Source: Octopus vulgaris
Lineage: Eukaryota
Direction: 5' to 3'
Length of the DNA: 64,000 nucleotides
Assembly: GCA_951406725.2 (NCBI GenBank)
Contig: OX597819.1
Coordinates: forward strand, 62,062,001 to 62,126,000
In this document: one piece after another, positions 5,457 through 55,530 of the stretch
How the letters are laid out: every line of letters begins with the position of its first letter
Numbering within the stretch: position 1 is the first letter of the stretch
Notes under the pieces: model-generated
Seen by the model: the letters and a program-made list of their open reading frames with translations, nothing else
The model's database searches: none
What the model was told of the DNA's origin: nothing
Made by a program: the position numbers and the translations under genes

Positions 5457-6590
5457 CAGTGGTTGGATAAAATAATGGAAACACTTTAAAATTTCAAACA
5501 AATTTATTATAATATGGGGCAGAACTACCTTTGGCAGTAATTACAGCTTGAATTCTCTGATGTATGGACTCATACAAAGTTTGAATTATTTCCAAAGGAA
5601 TTTTTGTCCATTCTTCAGCTAAAATAGTCACCAGTTCTTGTAGTGATGATGGTAGAGGATATCGACTCCTTACTTGTTTTTCTAAAATGCACCATAAATG
5701 TTCAATTATATTTAGGTCCAGTGACTATGGTGGCCAGATATGATGCTCGACTTCAGTAGAATGTTCCTCGTGCCATTCAGTAACAACTTTAGATCTGTGA
5801 ATTGGTGCATTATCATCCTGAAATATTGCATTTCCCTCTGGAAGCAGTTCTGCAACCATAGGATGAATGTGATCAGATAAAATGCTTAAATAGTCTTGAC
5901 TATTAATTCTGCCATGAAGGGAAAACATTAGGCTGGTGGATTTCCAAGATATAGCTTCCCAGATCATCACAGATCCTTCTCCATGTTTAACAGTTGGAAG
6001 AAAGAAACCTGGGTTAAATGCTTCTTTTGGCTGTCTCCACACATATACACGGCTGGTGGTTGGAAATAAGGTAAACGATGACACATCCGAGAAAATAAGA
6101 TTCTTCCATTGCTCCTGGGACCAATTCTGTAGGTTTTTACTCCACTCTAAACACTTCACAACATTTGTTTTTGAAAGTAGTGGCTTCCTGATTGCAACCC
6201 TCCTGTGAAATTCAGCTTTGTGCAGCTCCTGGCATACAGATTTTGTGAAAACTGGGTTCTCGAGGTGGTCATTAAGCTCTGCAGTAATTTTGTAAGCTAT
6301 ACTTTTGTGATCCTTTCTAACAATCTGTGTAAGAGTCTGACAGTCACTATCTGAAAGTTTTGGTCTTTTTCCAGACTTTTGTTTCAACGAGGAGGTTTTT
6401 CCTTCTTTCTCAAAGGCTGTCATTACTTTTGAGACGGTACTTCCTGATACACCATACATTTCGGCTCTTTTCATTACTCTAGCGCCTGCCATACGAGTAC
6501 CAACAATTTGACTTCTTTGAAAGTCCAATAGATCTGTCATTTTAATGAATTTTAATTACATTTTTCTGATATCTGAAAAGAAACATCATA
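5457..6590 (-). mobile_element. Tc1-like DNA transposon, one terminus retained
   Basis: TA|CAGTGGTTGGATAAAATAATGGAAACAC terminus at 5455-5484 downstream of the transposase. The matching TIR is not found beyond 6540 (sequence runs into an (AT)n tract). Confidence 0.8.
5494..6540 (-). pseudogene. Tc1/mariner transposase pseudogene (single premature stop; D..D(36)E spacing)
   Basis: 271-aa ORF with HTH region, GKRPKLS, FSDVSSF, TVKHGEGSVMIW and FQDDNAPIH. It continues in frame past TAG (5725-5727) as SLDLNIIEHLW...IQAVITAKG. Confidence 0.92.
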
Positions 6591-6833: not shown

Positions 6834-7849
6834 CTAGCAGTATCGCCCGGCGTTGCTTGGGTTTGTAAGGGAAATAACTATATAAGCATTTTTAGTGAGT
6901 TATAGCAAAAAAATCGCAAAAAATGCATTAAAAATGGAATAAAAAATGATGGTAATTTTTTTTTTAAATCGTAGACTCATCGTAGACATTTTTAGACAGT
7001 TACTTCCCTTATATAATAGTGAAAAATGCATTAAAATGGAATAAAAAATGATGGCTTATTTTTTTTTTTAATCGTTGACTCATCGTAGACATTTTTAGAG
7101 AGTTACTTCCCTTATATAATAGCGAAAAATGCATTAAAATGGAATAAAAAATGATGGTAATTTTTTTTTTAAATCGTAGACTCATCGTAGATGCGCGCTA
7201 ATACCCAGAAGGGCTCGATATGAATCACGACTATAAGATACCCGGTTTTGGTTACACTGCACCGCAAAATGTGGGAGTAGTTAGGAATCTAAATCTTAGG
7301 AGACAGACACACAACCTTACTTTTATATATAAAGATTTGTGCAACAACTAAAACATTCGGTTGTGCAAATTGTTTGCACAGGAAACCTGCCCTGTGGCAG
7401 TAATTGCCATTTTTGTGGATCTGTTTCAGCTTTTTTAGCGATTTCTGTTTTGACGACTTCAAGCCATGAAGTCGTTGTTCTAAAAGAACGCTGGTCTCCT
7501 TGACAACGCATTACGACGTTGATTTCCTTACACTCCCTTCCCCACAGCTTCACGAGGGAGGGAAAAAGGGGGAGAAGCAACGCAGGTGCAGGTGTGAGCG
7601 TGGACGCCAACTCCGCCGCCATCGACACACGAAAAATTATGCATTAAAATGGAATAAAAAATAATGTTAAATTATTTTTAAAATCGTAGACTCATCGTAG
7701 ACGCGCGCTAATACCCAGACAGGCTCGATATGAATCACGACTATAAGATACCCGAATTTGGTTAAACTGCACCGCAAAATGTGGGAGTAGTTAGGAATCT
7801 AAATCGAAGGGGACAGACACTCACACAACTACAGTTTTATATATATAGA
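6834..7849 (-). mobile_element. Non-autonomous Helitron (composite; internal ~97-bp repeats and a second 5' end near 7334)
   Basis: Minus-strand 3' end: hairpin cccaagcaacgccggg followed by CTAG (6834-6837). 5' ends read TC-TATATATA/TC-TTTATATATA on the minus strand at 7849 and ~7334. Confidence 0.8.
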
Positions 7850-10747: not shown

Positions 10748-11610
10748 CTTTTTTACTCAGTCACAAGGCCCGAAATGGGAGAAGGGGCCAGTCGATTAGA
10801 TCGACCCCAGTACTCAACTGGTACTTAATTTATTGACACCAAACAGATGAAAGGCAAAGTTGACCTCAGCGGAATTTGAACTCAGTGTGTAAAGACGAAT
10901 GAAATACCTCTAAGCATTTTGCCCGGCAAGCTAACATTTCTGCCAGCTCACTGCCTTATTTGAAACCAATATTCTTTTCTAGTCTAGTCACAAGGCCCAA
11001 AATTTTTGGGGAGAGAGCCAGTCGATTAAATCAACCCAAAAGGATAAAAGGCAAAGTCAACCTCAGCAGAATTTGAACTCAGAACAGAAAGACAAACGAA
11101 AAACCGCTAAGCATTTCGCTTGGCATGCTAACGTTTCTGCCAGCTCACCACCTTATTTGAAACCAATATTCATTTCTGCTCTAATCACAAGTCCTGAAAT
11201 TTTGGGGGAGGGATCCAGTCGATTAGATCGACCTCAGTACGCAACTGGTATTTAATTTACCAACCCCCAAAAGGATGAAAGGTAAATTCGACCTCAGTTG
11301 AATTTGAGCTTAAAGACAGATGAAATACTGCTAAGCATTTCACCCGGCGGGCTAATGTTTCTGCTATTTCTGCCTTATTTGAAACCAATATTCTTTTCTA
11401 CTCTAATCACAAGGCCTGAAATTTTGGGGGAGGGAACCAGTCAATTACATCGACCCCAGTACACAACTAGTACTTAATCTATCGACTCTGAAAGGATGAA
11501 AGGCAAAGTTGACCTCGGTGGAATTTGAACGTAGAACGTAAAGACAGACGAAATATCATTAAGTATTTTGCCCGGTGTGCTAACATTTCTGCCAGCTCTC
11601 TGCCTTACTG
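10748..11610 (-). mobile_element. Head-to-tail cluster of four tRNA-derived SINEs (family B, MetaSINE-like central domain)
   Basis: Repeated ~200-230 bp units with B-box gagttcaaattcc and gactttgcctttcatcctttcggggtcgataaattaagtacc on the minus strand. Confidence 0.75.
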
Positions 11611-12639
11611 TATATGTATATTAGAAAACCTGAGCTGTCAATAATGATGGCGGATGTTTTACTAAGCTTTGTTATAAGTACAGTGAAGGCACATGGTTTA
11701 GTGGTTAGGATATTTGGCTCACAATGGTACGGTCATGAGTTCAATTCTTGGTGGCACATTGTGTCTTCAAGCAAGACATTTCATTTCTTGTTGTTCTAGT
11801 CTATTAAGCTGGCAAAAATGACTTGTCCTTGTAATTCAAAGAGGTCAGCCTCATCACATTCTGTGTCTAGCTGAATCTCCCAGAGAACCATGTCAAGGGT
11901 ATATGTGTCTGTGGAGTGCTCAACCACATGCACATTAATTTCACGAGCAGGCTGTTCCATTGATTGAATGAACCTGGAATACTTGTCATTGTAACTGACA
12001 GGGTACCAGCTATAATTCCAGTATTTTGGTTTGTATGTATGAATATTAGATTTTTTTCCCATTAGAGCTATTGTGGAAAAATGTACATGATGATCATGCT
12101 AATGAAAGTATGAGAATATAGATATAAATGCCAAAATAACAGGAAAATAAGAAAATTATGCCTATCACACCCCAAATATTATACAGGTTTGATTACTTTT
12201 AATATGATTCACCTGCTCTGCTGAGGTTGACTTTGCCTTTCATCCTTTCAGGGTTGATAAATTAAGTACCAATTGTGTACTGGGGTTGATCTAATCAACT
12301 GGCTCCCTCCCCGGACATTTTGAGCCTTGTGACTAGAGTAGAAAAGAATATTGGTTTCAAATAAGGCGGTGAGCTGGCAGAAACGTTAGCACGCCAGGTG
12401 AAGCGCTTAGCAGTATTTCGTCTGTCTTTCCATTCTGAGTTCAAATTTGACTTTACTTTTCATCCTTTATATTTATATTTATATATGTATATTAAGGGCA
12501 CATAAATGCCTCACACAATTTGAAAAGCCCACCTCTTACATAGATATATAAGAGTGAACATCTCTACGTACTATGTTGGATACATTTGGTGTTTGTGTGG
12601 TATGTTGATTTTGTTTATTTTTATGTGTCTTGATTATGC

Positions 12640-14439: not shown

Positions 14440-15113
14440 GATCATCATCATCATCGTTTAACATTCACTTTCCATGCTAGCATGGGTTGGACGATTTGAC
14501 TGAGGACTGGCAAACCAGATGGCTGCACCAGGCTCCAGTCTGATCTGGTGGAGTTTCTACAGATGGATGCCCTTCCTAACGCCAACCACTCTGAAAGTGT
14601 AGTGGGTGCTTTTACGTGCCACCAGCACGAGAGCCAGTCAGGTGGTACTGGCAATGGCCATGCTTAAATGGTGTTTTTTCACGTGCCACCTGCACAGGAG
14701 CCAGTCCAGCAGCACTGACAATGACCTCACTCGAATGTTTTTTGACGTGCAACTGGCATAAGTGCCAGTAAGGCGACACTAGTAATGATCATGCTTGAAT
14801 GGTGCATTTTACATGCCACTGGCACAGAAGCCAGCCAGCTGCTCTGGCAACGATCATGCTTGGATGTTACTCTTAATGCTCTACTGGCCCATGTTTCACT
14901 GCCATGTAGCGTGGCTGTTCGTACACATACGTTATACAGTCTACCTTTTACTCTGAGCGAGAGGCCCTTTGTCACCAGCAGAAGTAAGAGCTCTCTGAGC
15001 TTCGCCCAAGCTATTCTTATTCTAGGAGTTACACTTTCAGCGCACTCTCCCCCACTACTGACTTGGTCACCTAGGTAACAGAAGCTATCAACTACTTCTA
15101 GTTTTTCTCCCTG
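14440..15113 (-). mobile_element. RTE LINE fragment (RT C-terminal piece + 3'UTR)
   Basis: KGLSLRVKGRLYNVCVRTATLHGSETW (14727-14975) and LEVVDSFCYLGDQVSSGG; (CAT)n end at ~14440. Confidence 0.85.
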
Positions 15114-15511
15114 GAATATTTATAAAAGAACACAAACTGGGTTTAAAATTCACAACAGCTGTTTCAGCAGCATTTATTGATGAATGCTTAGGTTACATCA
15201 TGTCAAAAACTTGCCACCTTCAAGTGACTTCAAATAAACAGAGTGGTAAGTTAGAAAATTTATCATGTTCCATAAGGAAACAAATTAAGTTTTCAGAAGA
15301 ATTGTAGAATTATAACGCCCACTTACCAAAATCCTATATATTTATATAGTAATTCCTCTATTTAGCTGTATATGTTTATGTATATTTACATGTTATGAGT
15401 GGCTGTATGATAAGAATCTTGCTTCCCAACCCCATGGTCCCAGGTTCAGTCCCACTGTATAGCATCTTGGGCAAGTGTCATATACTATAGCCTCGAGATT
15501 GGTAGACAGAA

Positions 15512-26915: not shown

Positions 26916-28773
26916 TATGAATATAGTGTAGCGTGTTAAGTACTTAATGCTGTTAACATTTGTGTGTTGTATGAAATAGCAATGTGAATTACTGAGAGGG
27001 AGAGGAGTACTATCTTTTGCCCTGCAAATCATTATTGTCAGCATCTATTGCAGAGGCAAAGAATGTTATGCCATCAAGAACATGAAAGCAGGGGAAATAA
27101 CTCTAGTGTTAATTGCCTGTTATCAATGCAGCTCACCAGCAGACAAAGAAAAGTTACAAAAAGTGTTTGTAATTGAATAGGAGCCATCTTGAAGCAAGAC
27201 TAATGCAAAACAAGAGTTGCTTTGAAGCTCCAATGTGCAGACCTTTCTCTATACGTGCAAATTCTTTAGCCATATTTTTTGCAGTCAGTCAGAGTAGTGC
27301 TTCGATATCCTCTTCTTGCACTTGCAGCTCAAACATCATCAGATTTTCATTAGACACACTTTTTTCATTAGACAAGTATCTCAGGAAGGGGCCAGTCGAT
27401 TAGATCGACCCCAGTAGTGGTTACCAGACTTTAAACCCTTTGAAAAATAAAAGAAGTAAAACTTATCCGAAGTGGACATTTATGGCATGCTATTTCTTTG
27501 AAGAGCTTATTATGAACTCCTCTTGAATTTTTATGATGCACTAAAGGTTTGGATCCCTATCAGTAAAGATTTCAGACCTTCCTCTATACGTACAAATTCT
27601 TTAGCCATATTCTTTGTAGTCAGTTAAAGTGGTGCTTTGATATGCTCTTCTTGCACTTGCAGCTCAAACATCATCAGATTTTCGTTAGATACACTTTTTT
27701 CATTTAGCAAGCTATGGTATCCCAGTATCTCAGGCACACCATCAATGGTATCTTCAAGCTCTACATAATTTTTCTGTGTTGCAGTGTCTTACTGAACTTG
27801 ATGAAGACTTTTTGCCGATGGAAAACTTCCAAAGTTATGGATATAAATCATAGCAGAAATATTGGAAGAGTGCCAATCACCAACTCATTGACTAGAAATT
27901 GAGACTGAATTTCTGTGTTCAGATGTAAAAATAACTATAAACACTTAAACAGGATTTTGTCAGGGATTGAAAACATCAGCAAGCAGTTAGCCATTCAAAT
28001 TTCTGGTAGACAGATTATGAACTTGTTTTTATCAGTGGCTGGGTCGACTGGCAAAAACACATTAGACCCAGCAGATGCTCAGCTCGTTAGAATCTCATTT
28101 GTTGTAAACACCCTAACCATTTTTGGATAAACAACATATTGGAATGTTATTAACGATTTTGTCTCTGGCACCTTTTTTGACAGAACATGGATCGTGACAC
28201 AACAAAACCCAGTTACTGCAGGAACTCACGTCATTCAGCTTCGGCTACAGAATGCAACAATTACTACGCTTCACTATCATTGTTGACACACTAATTGATT
28301 CATTTGGTGTTTATATCCCTCTTCTGTCGTTCATTGTAACGACAACAATTTTTTATAAACGATAAATAAATATTTTTTGTATATGGACATCATACAAATT
28401 TTTGTTTTATTAACCAACCAAATATTTTGTCATTATAACTTTGATCATGCATTTTGCTGAACACCATTCATAGCCAAGTATTTTACTTTGTCCCATAATT
28501 TGTCTCCATTATCCACTGCATCCATAATGTTTAACATTTTCCAGGAGGCTTTAACGATAGGTTTATCTTTTTCATCAATTGCTTTTCTCAGATAATATGC
28601 CTGGAAGTTAGCTATGTCATTTTGACCCTTTAGTTTCAGCAAAGAAGTATTTTTGACATTATATTTTGCCTTCTCATTATCAGAAAGATCGATTAAGTTC
28701 CCTTGGTAGTTTAGTGGATTTTCTGAAAATATTACACCTAGTACTGTAGTTTTTCTACAGAGGAAAAAAAGTT

Positions 28774-29124
28774 GGATCTTTACCTTTTGACCTACAGATT
28801 TAAAAAATAAATGTTTGTAACTAAACACTTTCAAACTTTGGACACTGGTAGAATGTGTCTTATAAAATATCTTTTACTCTTAGCATTTTTGAGAAAAACT
28901 TATATTTACGAAGTTATTTCACATTAAAGTTCTTGTATTTCGGTAATTTCAACCAATCAATGACGTGTATTCAGCTGAATAAAATTACTGCTGTTGTTTG
29001 TCAACAACAACTATCAGCGGTGTATTTTTCATTTGTCACTATTATTTATGACATCATTCGTGTGTTTGTACTGGTTTTAAGGTTTTAGGGTATGGGTTAG
29101 GGTTTTAGGGTCAAGGTTTTAGGG

Positions 29125-29155
<31 letters not shown>

Positions 29156-29651
29156 CTAGGGTTTTAGGGTTAGGGTTAGGGTTTTAGGGTTAGAGTTTTA
29201 GGGTTAGGGTTAGGGTTTAGAGTTAGGGTTAGGGTTTTAGGGTTAGGGTTTTAGGGTTAGGGTTAGGGTTTTAAGGTTAGGGTTTTAGGGGTAGGGTTTT
29301 AGGGTTAGGGTTTTAGGGGTAGGGTTTTAGGGTTAGGGTTAGGGTTAAGGTTTTAGGGTTAGGGTTAGGGTTGTCATAAATAACAGTGACAAACGAAAAA
29401 TACACCGCTGGAAGTTCTTGTTGACAAACAACAGCAGTAATTTTATTCAGCTGAATACACGCCATTGGTTGGTTGAAATTACCGAAATACTACAATTTTA
29501 ACGTGAAATAACTTCCTAAATATAAGCTTTTCTCAAAAACGCTAAGAGTAAAAGATGTTTTATATGACACATTCTACCAGTATATGAAGTTTGAAAGTGT
29601 TTAGATACAAAAAATTCTTTTTTAAATCTGTAGGTCAAAAGGTAAAAATCC
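28774..29651. mobile_element. Foldback/MITE with ~280-bp terminal inverted arms enclosing a telomere-type array; 7-bp TSD aaaagtt
   Basis: Arms 28774-29053 and 29372-29651 are reverse complements (GGATCTTTACC.../...GGTAAAAATCC), and aaaagtt flanks both sides. Confidence 0.9.
29073..29372 (+). repeat. Interstitial telomere-like array of TTAGGG/TTTAGGG/TTTTAGGG
   Basis: Directly visible ~300-bp G-rich array. Confidence 0.97.
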
Positions 29652-31269
29652 AAAAGTTTGTCAACCGGTATTGGAAAAGACTTATAGTCATCCAAGCATT
29701 CTAATTTGAATGCCAAATCGCAAGTATATTATACAAATACTTGAAAAAGAAAAAAAACCCTTCATTTTAGGAGAAAATATATGTGGGAGACTTAATATCA
29801 TGGCAGCAGCAGCAGCTTTTCTTTTTATTAAAAGAGTCAGACAATTTTTAGAAGTTTGAAAAGCTTGGTATTGAGCTTTCTTCAGTCTAAGTACAAATCC
29901 TAGTAGACATGCGTTTCCAACAAGCCCAGTTTCATCAACGTTTTACACTTGTTCTGGTTTGTAAACTTGTTCATCGATAATTTTCTACAACTCTGAAGTT
30001 AATTAGTTGCAGTCTCTGCGCCAGTTCTCCTATTGTACTTTATTTCTTCTCATCCACCTGCCTGTCTATCTTACTAATGGCATTACCCTGTTATCTTACT
30101 AACCGTTTTAATGCTGTGCAATTCAAGACACCTCTTAAACCAATGATGTCAAACTTGTTTGGTTTTGCGGGACAGTGAAGAACAATTATTCCTGAAAATT
30201 CCTATCTATAATGTAGGCCAAAGTAAATGAAAAAAGAAAAAGCGTCAATATACATTAAAACAACCTTATTGGCAATGTGAGGTGTTAATAAAGTTTGTAG
30301 GCACAGTTACCCCGCTTGACACCGGGTTCAAATAAGCCGGCCACGTAGAGGGGGCGTTATGCAACATTAAGTTTCAGACATTCACTTCTGTCGCTTTCTG
30401 CACTGGGATGCGAACTATGAAGACACAACCTGACTGGCCCTCTCATATCACACGCCAGCTAGCAGATAGGAGTAAAAGCCCTGAAGACCATGCCCTCTAC
30501 GCACTAACCATTCCATTTATCATTCAGTTGTGCATATACATGTGGCCACATTAAATGTATACAAAATTACAACCTTTTTTATATATTCTTCATCCGGGTT
30601 TCCTACCAAATGAGATCACAACCTTCTGAGTGAGTCACATTAAGTGGCTCAACAACTAACTACCCATCTATAAGTTTATATGTAGAGGTGTGTGTGTGTG
30701 TGTGTATGGTGGGGGAATTCATCAATGTTGCATATATACAGTTGTATTAAGTGTTTTTAAAGTCAAAACGAAAATAGAAAAGTTTAATAGAAAGATTGAA
30801 GTATTTCAGCTGCAAAACCTTTCTGTATCGTTCAAAATCCATTTGGATGTACATGTGTGTAAATTTGAAATAAATAAACCACCCGTTTTCCTTGACGTGT
30901 GAAGGGGGGAGGCAAAAAAGCCACATCTTTTGGTATATGAATCCACAAGCTTCTTTTTACTTTGGTTACGATAAAGAATTCCTTTAGGTGGTTTGATTTT
31001 GATTAATAGGGGCCGGTATTAATCAGTTTAGTTGGATGCATACTTCGTTAACCATATCATATATAGTAACGGTATATATTTTACAAAATATTTAAATGTT
31101 AAAAAATAATGCTAAAAATTATTTTTTATAAAATTGAGCTGGGGGCCAGACTAAACATTGCTACGGGCCATATGGTTCATACCCCTGTTTTAAACCTTTT
31201 AAACCAACCTTGCACGTTTGCAAATTATCATGCAAACTTTTAACCTTCGCTTGGATCGTTCAATCCAAA

Positions 31270-31660
31270 AGGCGGCGAGCTGGCAGAAACGTTAGCACGC
31301 CGGGCGAAATTCTAAGCGGTATTTCGTCTGCTGCTACGTTCTGAGTTCAAATTCCACCGAGGTCGACTTTGCCTTTCATCCTTTCGGGGTCGATTAAATA
31401 AGTACCAGTTACGCAATTAGGTCGATATAATTAACTTAATCCTTTTGTTTGTCCTCTCTGTGTTTAGTCCCTTGTGGGTAGTAAAGAAATAGGTATTTCG
31501 CCCATTGCTACGTTCTGAGTTCAGATTCCGCTGAGATCGACTTTGCCTTTTATCCTTTCGGGGTCAATGAAATAAGTACCAGTTATGCACTGGGGTCGAT
31601 GAAATCTATTATCCCCCTCCACCAAATTTCAGACCTTATGCTTATAGTAGAAAAGTATTA
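31270..31660 (+). mobile_element. tRNA-derived SINE family B (CpG-intact copy; others at ~2058-2200, 10015-10195, 12220-12470, 25760-25970, 34435-34975)
   Basis: ggcggcgagctggcagaaacgttagcacgccgggcgaaat head, B-box gagttcaaattcc, and the gcctttcatcctttcggggtcgat central domain. Confidence 0.8.
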
Positions 31661-32319
31661 CGTCCAATCCCATCATTGGTCTACACGCTTAGGAACCGTT
31701 CCATTTTAATCGTTATTCTAGCTCTATGAAAAAAAAAAAAAAAGAAAAAGAAAAAAATGTCAACGCATTTAACGGATTGTCCATCTTTAATGAGATATAT
31801 TTTTCCTGCTGCAGGCGTTGTTTTTATCAATATGAATGATTTATTTTTCTGCAACATGAAACCTTTGTTAAAACAGCAAGTTTAATGTTCAATATAATAC
31901 CTTTATGAATCCTTTTCATATTATTGCATTAATTTCCACTTGAAAGTCATCCCATTACTTGAGTCAAAGCTGAACTGTATTGGATAATTTACATCTTTCT
32001 GATGATTGTGAATTATCCAGTACGTTTCTTTATAAGCGGTACAAACTTCGCCATTAACAAGATTCATTGGGCTTGCCTAAATATTTAAACAGGCCCGACA
32101 AATGTGGGATTTTTCTATAGACACATTTAGAGTCACTTTCTTAAATGAAACCAAAGGTAGCTTGCATATTTGCATATGAATACTTATGGTATAGCTGTTA
32201 ATAAATAATACGTATAAATGTATGTATGTATGTATGTATGTATGTATGTATGTATGTATGTATGTATGTATGTATGTATGTATAAACACACACACAGACA
32301 TACACACAAACACATATAG

Positions 32320-32739
32320 GAATCTTTTCAGTTTTTAAGATAATTTCTAGGTGACTAAAATATTTTAAACTTCGTATACTGGTAGAATGTGTTTATAAAA
32401 CATCTTTTTCTCTTGGCTTTATTGAGAAAATTCTATAGTTCGTAAGATATTTGTTGTTTTTTTGTTCAATTTCTGCAATTTCAACCAATCAATGACGTCC
32501 ATTGAGGTAAAAAAAACAAAACATTCTGTGCCGTATGAATATGTCCCTCGTTTAAGACACAGATTGGGTTCATTTACATTTGTGAAGAAAAAAAGATACC
32601 CTTCCCCCACCCCTAACCCTAACCCTAACTAACCCTAAAACAGATTGAAATGCAATTGATCGATACTAGGGTCATAATTATGGGTGACAATTTCATATGA
32701 CACCGCTAGAAAAAACTGCCGTTCAAACCGAAACGATCC
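32320..32739. mobile_element. Related non-autonomous DNA element with short TIRs and (CCCTAA)n
   Basis: Termini gaatcttttcagttt / aaaccgaaacgatcc and flanks catatag/aatatag. Shares ctggtagaatgtgt...tgagaaaa...aatttcaaccaatcaatgacgt with the 28774 arms; CCCTAA repeats at 32612-32638. Confidence 0.7.
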
Positions 32740-33650
32740 AATATAGTAATAGGCACTCGTCGATCTCGAGAGACTACGGACCTGCTCTCGAAGAAATTGT
32801 GTCGGCTGCTGGTGGTGGTGCAGCGTCTACTATAACTGCAGAGGACCACACGGGAGTGACAGTCACGTATACAGCGACTGTATTTGAAGGAGCTCTCTAC
32901 TGGTGTTACAAGATTTTCTTTCCGTCGAGAGACTCGTTGGCTCACAAATACACCCATACCCACTTTCTCTTTCCCACTTATGCTCACCTTATATCTTGAG
33001 ACTTTCTCTGCCACTCCATCATTACTTTTTATTTATTCAACTCCACCGACCCATCCTGATATAATGCGAGGTAGCCATGCATCTCTTCTATAGCAAGACA
33101 TCTGTAGCTTGTCTCTTCATCATACTTTAGCCTTTTGACACCTGGCATAAAGGCACCCTCGCCTCACTTAGTAGCGAGAGCTTTTTCTTTTTCCTCTGTT
33201 CTTTTTCTGTTTTGCAAATTACTCAGCAACCTCACCGATGCCGGTGGCACGAAAATGAGCACCAAATACACACGGTAATGTAGTTGGTAATTTAAAGGAC
33301 TGCCAATCATAGAAACCATGCCAAGGCTGGCACTGGAACTCAGCGCGGCACTGCGGATCGCCGGATCTTGTGCAACCATCTAACCCATACTAGCATGGAA
33401 AAGAGACTTTAAATGAGATCCGTCGTTACATGTACGTATGTATGTATGTATGTATGTATGTATGTATGTATGTATGTATGTATGTATGTATGTATGTATG
33501 TATGAATGAATGCGTATGTATGCATATATAGATGTATATGTATGTATTCCTGTACCCATATATGCATGTATATATACATATATATGTAGGTATGTACGTA
33601 TATGTATGTATATATGCATATATTTATATATTATTTATATTATATTATAT

Positions 33651-33692
<42 letters not shown>

Positions 33693-35145
33693 ACACACAC
33701 ACACACATAATGTAATATATGTGTGCATATATGTCTGTATGTACATATATATTTTATATGCACACACACGTGCATATATATGTATGACATCACTAACAAT
33801 TCGAGTAGCCGTATCTCCTAAAAGGTCAAAAGTCCACTGGATATTTACTTGCAGATATCTAAGTTCTCTAACTTCTTACAGTAAAAAGTGTTGTATCTCC
33901 GTGACCTTTACAATTCAAGATACTAAAACGTACGAACTGTCGTAACACTAGAGTAATTTTGTTAAATGGCAGTAATAATGAGAGTTTTGACTATTGAAGA
34001 TAATTTTCTTCAAACTTTGTTATGTGCAAATAAGCAGTCTGCGTACTGTTCACAAACAATTCGTCAACAGTTCTGTCTAGCTCACCACGGGAATGTTGCT
34101 GGTTTTTTCTCCATATTACCGTATTTTAACGTGTATAAGGAACCCTTTTTTGTCAAAAATTAGGTTAAAAAAATATAGGAGTTTTTTTTATACATGGATA
34201 GTATTATAATCCCTTGCAAAACCTTTTTTTATGAATTTTAAACCCTTAAAATTAAGGGGTTTCTCATACACAATGGTTCATTATACGTGTTAAAATCCGC
34301 TCGTTTGAATTGTGGAATCAAGAGTATGAAGATCAATGAGGAGTGTAGAGTTAGACTAAGCTCGAACTTGTATAGGTTGTAATTGAGAATTCCTTGCTAA
34401 AAGAGAAAAAAAAACCCCAAAACGTTGAAATTTCTTTTCTACTCTACGCATAAGGCCTGAAATTTTGGGGGAGGAGGCCAGTCGATTAGATCGACCCAGT
34501 ACGTAACTGGTACTTAATTTATCGACCCCGAAAGGATGAAAGGCAAAGTTGACCACGGCGGAATTTGAACTCAGAACATAAAGACAGACGAAATACAGCT
34601 AAGCACTTCGCCCGGCTTGCTAACGTTTCTTATTTCTTTATTGCCCAACATAGGGGCTAAACATAGAGGGGACATACAAGGACAGACAAAGGGATTAAGT
34701 CGATTCCCGTGTGTAATTGGTACTTAATTTATCGACCCCGAAAGGATGAAAGGCAAAGTTGACCTCGGCGGAATTTGAACTCAGAACATAACGGCAGACG
34801 AAATACCTATTTCTATTTCTTTACTACCCACGAGGGGCTAAACACAGAGAGGACGAACAAGGACAGACACACGGATTAAGTCGATTACATCGACCCCAGT
34901 GTGTAACTGGTACTTAATTTATCGACCCCGAAAGGATGAAAGGCAAAGTCGACCGTGGCGGAATTTGAACTTAAAATACTTTCTAACTTTCTAATTTTGT
35001 GTGATAAGAAGCTTGCTTCCCAACCACATAGTTCCTGGTTCAGTCTCACTGCGTGGCACTTTGGGCAAGTGTCTTCTACTATAGTCTTGGGCCGACCAAA
35101 ACTTTGTGAGTGGATTTGGTTGACGGAAACTGAAAGAAGCCCGTC

Positions 35146-54134: not shown

Positions 54135-55530
54135 ATCACCGTTGTTTAAAGTCAGTTTTCCATGCTAGCATGAGTTGAATGGTTTCACAAGAGCTGTCCA
54201 GACTCCAATTGTCTCTTGTGGCATGGCTTCATGTCCTTCCTGATGCTAACCACTTTGAGTGTGCTGAGTGCGTTTACACAGCACCAATGTGTGTGCATTT
54301 TGTGTGGTACCAGCACCTGAAAAGGACAGGCTTGTATGTGTGGATGACACTGAATTTACTTGGCTTGACACGTCTTCTCTAGTACAACGAATCGCCATAA
54401 CTCTTGTGCTTTTGTCATTTCTTCAGTGTCTGAAGATTCTTTCTTAACACTTTGCCCCATGTCTTCCTGGGCCTACCCCTTCCCCAGGTTCCTTCCACAG
54501 TTAGAACTTGGCACTTTATTTGGCTGTCCTCATCCATACACATCATGTGACCAAACCAATGCAGTCTTCTCTCTTGCACACATCTGCTGCTTCATATATG
54601 TAGTTTTCCTCTTAAATCATTTACAATCTGTCATGTGTGAACACTGATATTACCCCTCCAGTGGAGCATGTTAGCTTCCTTTCTTTCAAGCCTTCACAAG
54701 TCTTCTGTAGTTATAACCCATGTCTCACTGCCATGTAACATAGCAGTATATGCACAGGCATCATACAATCTGCCTCTCTCTCTCTGAGAGAGAGGCCCTT
54801 TGTTACCAATAAAGGTAGAAGCTGTCTGAACTTTGCCCATTCTGTACTTATTCTAGCAACTACACTTTCAGAACTTCCTCCTCCACTGCTAACTTGGTCG
54901 CCTAGGTAACAGAAGCTATCTACTACTTCTAATGATCACCTGAGCATTTGTGGGAGTCGATTGCCTGCACATTTTTAGTGCGTATTGTACCTGCACATTT
55001 GTTCACACAGATTATTTTCTGTTAACCTTCCTGTGATTCTGCTACACCTCGTATGTGTCGACAAGTGGGGGCTGAGAACTGATCCTTGGTGAACTCCTAC
55101 CTGTATATTGAATTCATTGCTATACTTACTGGCAGCATCCCTGTACATGGTTTGTATGGTTTGTACAGCTAACCACTCCTCTGTCCCTAGCTTCCGCATT
55201 GACCACCAAGTAAGGGGGTAGAGAACCCTGTCAAAGGTTTTCTCGATTTTGACAGCTAAATACTTCTGCAGTTGCTTTATCAGGAATATAGCATCAGTCA
55301 TGCTTCTCTCAGACACAAAACCAAACTGCATCTCATTTAGGCTAACTCTCTTCCTAATTAGTTGAGCTGTAACCCTCTCTGTATCTTTCATTACCTGGTT
55401 CAGCAGTTTCATACCTATGTAACTATTTCTGTCTTTGTTGCAGTTGACTTTGGTACTGCTGCACCAGTCGTTGGGTCTGACTTCCTTGTGGACAGCAATA
55501 TTAGTCCAAATCCCATTCCGCCAGGTGTTT
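54135..55530 (-). mobile_element. RTE LINE relic (RT domain + 3'UTR) in OGT intron 1
   Basis: EMQFGFVSERSMTDAIF..EKTFDRV..GVHQGSVLSP (54975-55412), followed by the same C-terminal and 3'UTR sequence as 625-1420. Confidence 0.88.

Follow-up and report, generated by a model that had tools for sequence, protein, structure and literature searches.

Introduction

Telomeric repeats in interstitial positions are usually interpreted as traces left by chromosome fusion or repair. TBE1 of Oxytricha, a Tc1/mariner-like element that encodes proteins, carries telomeric repeats at the tips of its arms. Foldback elements of the Galileo/P type have long arms, a 7-bp duplication and CA..TG termini. The hATw transposons make 7-bp duplications, and the ends of hAT elements are usually YA..TR.

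Merlin elements are described as having GG ends, terminal inverted repeats (TIRs) of 24-462 bp and 8-9-bp duplications. Several Merlin families contain internal tandem repeats; that of Merlin-1_Aplcal, from the mollusc Aplysia, has a period of 6 and 39.5 copies, the unit not being given. The arms of Merlin-1N1_LVa are 325 bp long, and Octopus bimaculoides is among the sources given for Merlin-like proteins (all from the available portions of PMC8101967). MULE duplications are 8-11 bp, and the arms of MULE/Phantom elements, hundreds of bases long, fold into hairpins (PMC6446971, available portions). Repbase hAT entries are annotated '7-bp TSD', the terminal rule being that bases 1-11 align with a classified member (PMC4455052, in part). 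Duplications of 7 bp are also given for the fungal hAT7 and the TIR-less Kyakuja (PMC12730594, in part), and hATw is annotated in snail, Hydra and amphioxus (PMC12905397, PMC13465017 and PMC6128900, each in part). Tandem repeats within TIR elements are thus already known.

The stretch of Octopus vulgaris DNA analysed here (64,000 nucleotides, called the window) contains an element in which two long inverted arms enclose a telomere-like array. It resembles TBE1 in having telomeric repeats within a DNA transposon and differs from it in that the array is internal and the element non-coding. With the Galileo/P type it has in common the long arms and a 7-bp duplication; its termini, however, are GGAT..ATCC, and Galileo is without a telomere-like core. 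No description of a TTAGGG-carrying TIR transposon was found in the literature covered, which excluded Repbase Reports and most subscription journals. Titles and abstracts yielded none from octopus, and the available portions of PMC6947457, PMC6431247, PMC9071541, PMC10045372 and PMC8969392 contain nothing on a two-armed telomere-repeat architecture. The family may well be present in repeat libraries already.

Structure of the two-armed element

The two-armed element spans 878 bp (28774..29651). Its parts and immediate flanks are listed below; element B is a related element described further on.

28767..28773, no strand: left target-site duplication AAAAGTT, directly outside the left arm
28774..29053, plus strand: left inverted arm, 280 bp, terminus GGATCTTT
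28953..28966, plus strand: motif CCAATCAATGACGT of the left arm, exact; also exact in element B at 32485
29016..29052, plus strand: inner arm module (AGCGGTGT...TTGTCAC...ATGAC), resembling the right end of element B
29054..29072, plus strand: 19-bp spacer between left arm and array; at the other end, array and right arm adjoin with nothing between them
29073..29371, plus strand: telomere-like array of 299 bp, made up of some 44 units (TTAGGG, TTTTAGGG and variants of these)
29372..29651, minus strand: right inverted arm, likewise 280 bp long, differing from its left counterpart at 25 positions
29652..29658, no strand: right target-site duplication AAAAGTT, directly outside the right arm

The original prediction of inverted arms of about 280 bp around a telomere-like array is borne out. 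The arms, 28774-29053 and 29372-29651, align without gaps and are 91% identical, and their 25 differences comprise 14 transitions and 11 transversions (K2P 0.095), three of the 25 being attributable to CpG decay. This is the longest of the 422 inverted pairs found in the window among pairs up to 5 kb apart. The predicted fold of the element has a z-score of -27.7, and none of 20 shuffles was equally stable. The termini are GGATCTTT and, in reverse complement, GGATTTTT, the ends thus reading GGAT..ATCC. The interior consists of the spacer and the array, and contains neither a transposase gene nor a Pfam match. The arm sequence had no match among plasmids, no Rfam family was found in 27000-34000, and no second two-armed copy is present in the 64-kb window.

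A CCAAT/CRE-like motif had been described in each arm. It is exact in the left arm, where CCAATCAATGACGT presumably combines a CCAAT box and a CRE-like half site, but its counterpart in the right arm (29459-29472) has decayed to CCAACCAATGGCGT by two changes. Beside this CCAAT/TGACGT motif, in the longest stretch unchanged between the arms, each arm has a perfect 14-bp palindrome with a ATTCAGCTGAAT core (28968-28981 and 29444-29457), which is absent from element B.

By an approximate regular-expression count, the array is composed of 20 TTAGGG units, 11 TTTTAGGG units and 13 variants, TTAGGG being the commonest. All of it runs in a single polarity with no head-to-head junction. The longest pure TTAGGG run is 3 units, and there is an internal 28-bp tandem duplication, in which a 38-bp segment that includes a non-canonical unit is repeated 28 bp further along. 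The G4Hunter score of the array is 1.26; it contains 38 G-runs and 6 of the 7 canonical G4 motifs on the plus strand of the window.

The host sequence

The two-armed element interrupts the remnant of a gene, here called the host fossil.

28448..28773, minus strand: downstream part of the host fossil, a decayed transposase-like gene; Pfam negative
29659..29960 (upper boundary approximate), minus strand: upstream part of the host fossil, with several frameshifts and stops

That the fossil is derived from coding sequence is shown by 17 unnamed protein relatives (best E 4.5e-14). The earlier name Tigger found no confirmation in Pfam; by motifs such as NVDETG and AWMT the fossil is tentatively Tigger/pogo-like. 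The host fragments gave no match in Pfam, DDE_1 included, and none in PDB, and a word-index search gave none among 117 candidates. Recognisable motifs are spread over all three frames, and the frame changes several times. Excision of the element together with 7 bases gives AWMTISLFQYRLTNFFSSVEKLQY, exactly as had been claimed, but the frame comes out identical when 1, 4 or 10 bases are taken out instead. The excision test therefore shows insertion into a continuous fossil and does not single out the length of the duplication. The observations support a true insertion of a non-autonomous TIR DNA transposon. A 139-bp direct repeat (27238-27376 and 27573-27711; 90% identical, 335 bp apart) lies close to what is probably the C-terminal end of the fossil.

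Element B and the target-site duplication

The window contains two complete copies only, 2.7 kb apart. The second, element B, lies downstream of the two-armed element.

32313-32319 and 32740-32746: flanks of element B, CATATAG and AATATAG, a 6/7 match
32320..32739, plus strand: element B, 420 bp, asymmetric, with termini GAATCTTT and GGATCGTT (reverse complement)
32611..32640, minus strand: telomere-like array of element B, short, reading on the plus strand as 4 full CCCTAA units and one incomplete unit

Element B begins GAATC and ends GATCC, termini similar to those of the two-armed element. It is equally distant from the outer parts of the two arms, with 132 and 135 identical of 184 aligned bases (about 73%). 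Element B lacks the foldback form: its ends match over only about 8 bases, two of which are mismatched. Followed inward from its right end, element B is similar to the inner arm module, and 11 of 5000 shuffles but none of 4872 real windows attained the same score, for regions that were chosen after the similarity had been noticed. The arm of the two-armed element combines modules found at opposite ends of element B. The first unit of the array is of the TTTT type in either element and lies some 20-30 bp inward of the inner module, and the G-rich strand runs inward; the lengths of the two arrays differ about tenfold. The telomere-like repeat and the flanking duplication, proposed as features to look for in other copies, both recur in element B, as 4-5 units in the same place and polarity and as the 6/7 flank match. 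The foldback form and the long array do not hold as family traits: element B is without both, and they are seen only in the 28774-29651 copy or its subfamily. The insertion site of element B is the margin of an (ATGT)n/(AC)n microsatellite block.

A scan of bacterial and archaeal genomes with one exact 22-base pattern gave a single locus, bases 1-72 of contig JBMYPE010000078.1 (Kangiellaceae MAG), which is 89.6% identical to element B over 77 bp. Beyond base 72 the contig is bacterial-looking and unrelated to element B. Horizontal transfer was rejected as the explanation; the simplest account of 72 matching bases at a contig start is that animal DNA was joined to the contig chimerically, and the start of this contig is probably such a chimeric end. 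The fragment shows that elements of the element B type exist in more than one copy, and it is too short to include termini or array.

The 7-mer AAAAGTT is repeated exactly outside both arms. Random position pairs share a 7-mer with a frequency of 2.65e-4 (400,000 pairs), and the chance of a flank match with one mismatch in 7, as in element B, is 2.8e-3. Because AAAAGTT begins with AA and ends with TT, the locus alone can also be parsed as TGGAT ends with a 5-bp duplication or as TTGGAT ends with a 3-bp one; the flanks of element B alone can be parsed as a 6-bp or 5-bp duplication. A 7-bp duplication costs no substitution in the two-armed element and one terminal and one flank substitution in element B. 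An 8-bp duplication requires the loss of one base in each element (edit distance 1 each) and is disfavoured. Seven bp is the cheapest parse common to both elements and hence the best one, in agreement with the original prediction. The duplicated sequence differs between the copies, being AAAAGTT in the two-armed element and (C/A)ATATAG in element B, in a comparison of two copies only. Insertion at TT/AA with no duplication was considered and rejected: it leaves the repeated 7-mer unexplained, and element B has no TT at its left flank.

Predicted RNA structure and other repeats in the window

RNA from either strand of the two-armed element is predicted to form a long stem (-388.7 and -382.8 kcal/mol) with a longest perfect run of 44 bp. 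A G4 is predicted from the plus strand only, and allowing it lowers the energy to -453.3 kcal/mol. A G4-prone RNA loop would, by this prediction, need transcription of the plus strand. Binding of telomere proteins to the element and its editing by ADAR are predictions only. SINE-like repeats at 10839-12447 and 31285-34630 form tandem and inverted pairs with arms of 129-202 bp (85-88%), and they provide double-stranded RNA more commonly than the two-armed element does. The SINE-like repeats and the microsatellites of the window suggest an octopus genome.

A Pfam scan was made of 100 of the 146 stop-free segments of at least 75 aa, the 46 of low complexity being left out, and it detected two protein matches only.

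5728-6555, minus strand: Tc1-type transposase, 276-aa stop-free frame (HTH_Tnp_Tc3_2 E 1.1e-7, DDE_3)
54978-55529, minus strand: reverse transcriptase fragment (RVT_1 E 6.7e-9)

No autonomous partner with matching ends, such as one with the DDE_Tnp_IS1595 transposase expected for Merlin, was found in the window, and none of the 100 scanned segments encodes a matching transposase, a scan that a heavily decayed partner would escape. LINE-like pieces were seen by eye at 1130-1492 and 14730-15119. A 103-bp tandem repeat (2.7 copies, 6912-7191) has weak 19-21-bp matches to the arms (E 0.18), probably by chance.

Origin of the telomere-like repeats

It is highly probable that the two-armed element belongs to a multi-copy family of non-autonomous cut-and-paste TIR transposons, whose termini are G(G)AT and whose target cut has a stagger of 7 bp, in which the telomere-like repeat is an old, built-in part. 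The ancestral element would have carried a short telomere-like repeat just inside a conserved subterminal module, and this repeat would predate the split into subfamilies. A transposase encoded elsewhere would bind the ends, mobilise the element in trans and cut the target with a 7-base stagger; the target here would have been a dead transposase gene. In the two-armed subfamily both ends would be long 280-bp arms, and slippage or unequal exchange would have extended the repeat to some 44 units. These processes are favoured over telomerase because pure runs do not exceed 3 units and a 38-bp segment containing a non-canonical unit reappears after 28 bp; telomerase addition would not yield impure, internally duplicated arrays. 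As to the history of the arms, long arms may be ancestral and element B a deletion derivative, or the foldback may have arisen by template switching at the array, which is conceivable because array and right arm are joined directly, without a spacer.

The same data bear on other origins. If a fusion or telomerase healing had left an interstitial telomere, and a breakage-fusion event its inverted flanks, canonical TTAGGG might well be the commonest unit, as it is. The array, however, has a single polarity instead of a head-to-head arrangement and its units are impure, the host fossil is continuous across a site whose target is duplicated, and the same repeat is found in the related element B, so that this origin is scarcely credible. 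The evidence supports the conclusion that TTAGGG-type repeats travel with the transposon family and do not mark a fusion, because they have one polarity and no head-to-head junction and recur at the same place in element B. The original prediction, which regarded the array as transposon cargo and not a fusion scar, is sustained on the second point by the polarity, the duplicated target and the relative; capture at this locus does not agree with the presence of the repeat in subfamilies about 27% apart. It is also unlikely that the foldback is a one-off, formed when an element like B broke at its G-rich array and one end was copied inverted during repair, the array then growing locally. The spacer on the left arm only and the lack of a second foldback copy in 64 kb would fit such an event, but the exact 7-bp duplication outside both arms shows that the unit already had two arms when it was inserted, modules from opposite ends of element B are combined in the arm, and the two arms are equally distant from that element.

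Whichever way the arms arose, the repeat might be a functional cis-module, in which TTAGGG is kept for telomere-repeat-binding factors or G4 formation (in end pairing, as a promoter or in escape from silencing) and seeds such sites genome-wide. Its constant place and polarity in the two diverged subfamilies, the G4Hunter score with the G-runs and G4 motifs of the array, and the decrease in predicted RNA energy when a G4 is allowed are in keeping with this. An array that is impure, with at most 3 pure units in a row, and that varies about tenfold in length between two copies is not, and two copies are too few to show selection; we regard a cis-module as improbable. Most likely the repeat is a passenger or a subterminal binding repeat with no telomere function.

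Relationship to known superfamilies

The likeness of the two-armed element to Merlin is one of form, in GG termini, long arms and internal tandem repeats. The resemblance of the GG termini, pointed out in the original prediction together with the misfit of the duplication, holds for three of the four ends of the two elements, the fourth beginning GA. The 280-bp arms fall within the Merlin range of 24-462 bp, and the corresponding match in element B is about 8 bp with two mismatches. The misfit is real as well: Merlin duplications are 8-9 bp, whereas 7 bp is the best fit here. The arms are of the size of the hairpin-forming arms of MULE/Phantom elements, but the 7-bp duplication lies outside the 8-11 bp of MULE/Mutator (PMC6446971, in part). 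The 7-bp hAT groups agree in the length of the duplication and in having asymmetric ends as in element B; hAT7, however, is fungal, and hATw is a candidate by the length of the duplication. The available portions of PMC9004415, PMC12905397, PMC13465017 and PMC6128900 mention hATw/hAT5 without termini, and hATw end sequences were not found in the available portion of PMC8721813 or elsewhere in the literature covered.

Although it resembles a long-armed non-autonomous Merlin or MULE in its working, the two-armed element is filed under none of Merlin, MULE and hAT, because the length of its duplication disagrees with the first two, and its agreement with the third in that length would have to extend to the termini. 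The best single guess for the mover, and a tentative one, is a transposase of the Merlin kind whose stagger has become shorter. A 7-bp hAT is possible, though slightly less likely; some other or unclassified transposase is doubtful, and a MULE is the least likely of the four.

Significance

GG ends combined with a 7-bp duplication fit neither the published Merlin nor the published MULE definition. There is a small chance that TTAGGG is retained as an active subterminal module by an unclassified GG-ended, 7-bp-duplicating group and that this group, present in many copies, accounts for most of the interstitial telomere-like repeats, sites for telomere factors and G4 motifs of this genome, to which the foldback subfamily would add long double-stranded RNA stems. 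A transposon family carrying telomere-like repeats is another origin for interstitial telomeric sequence than fusion or repair, and would confound telomere calling and the mapping of chromosome fusions.
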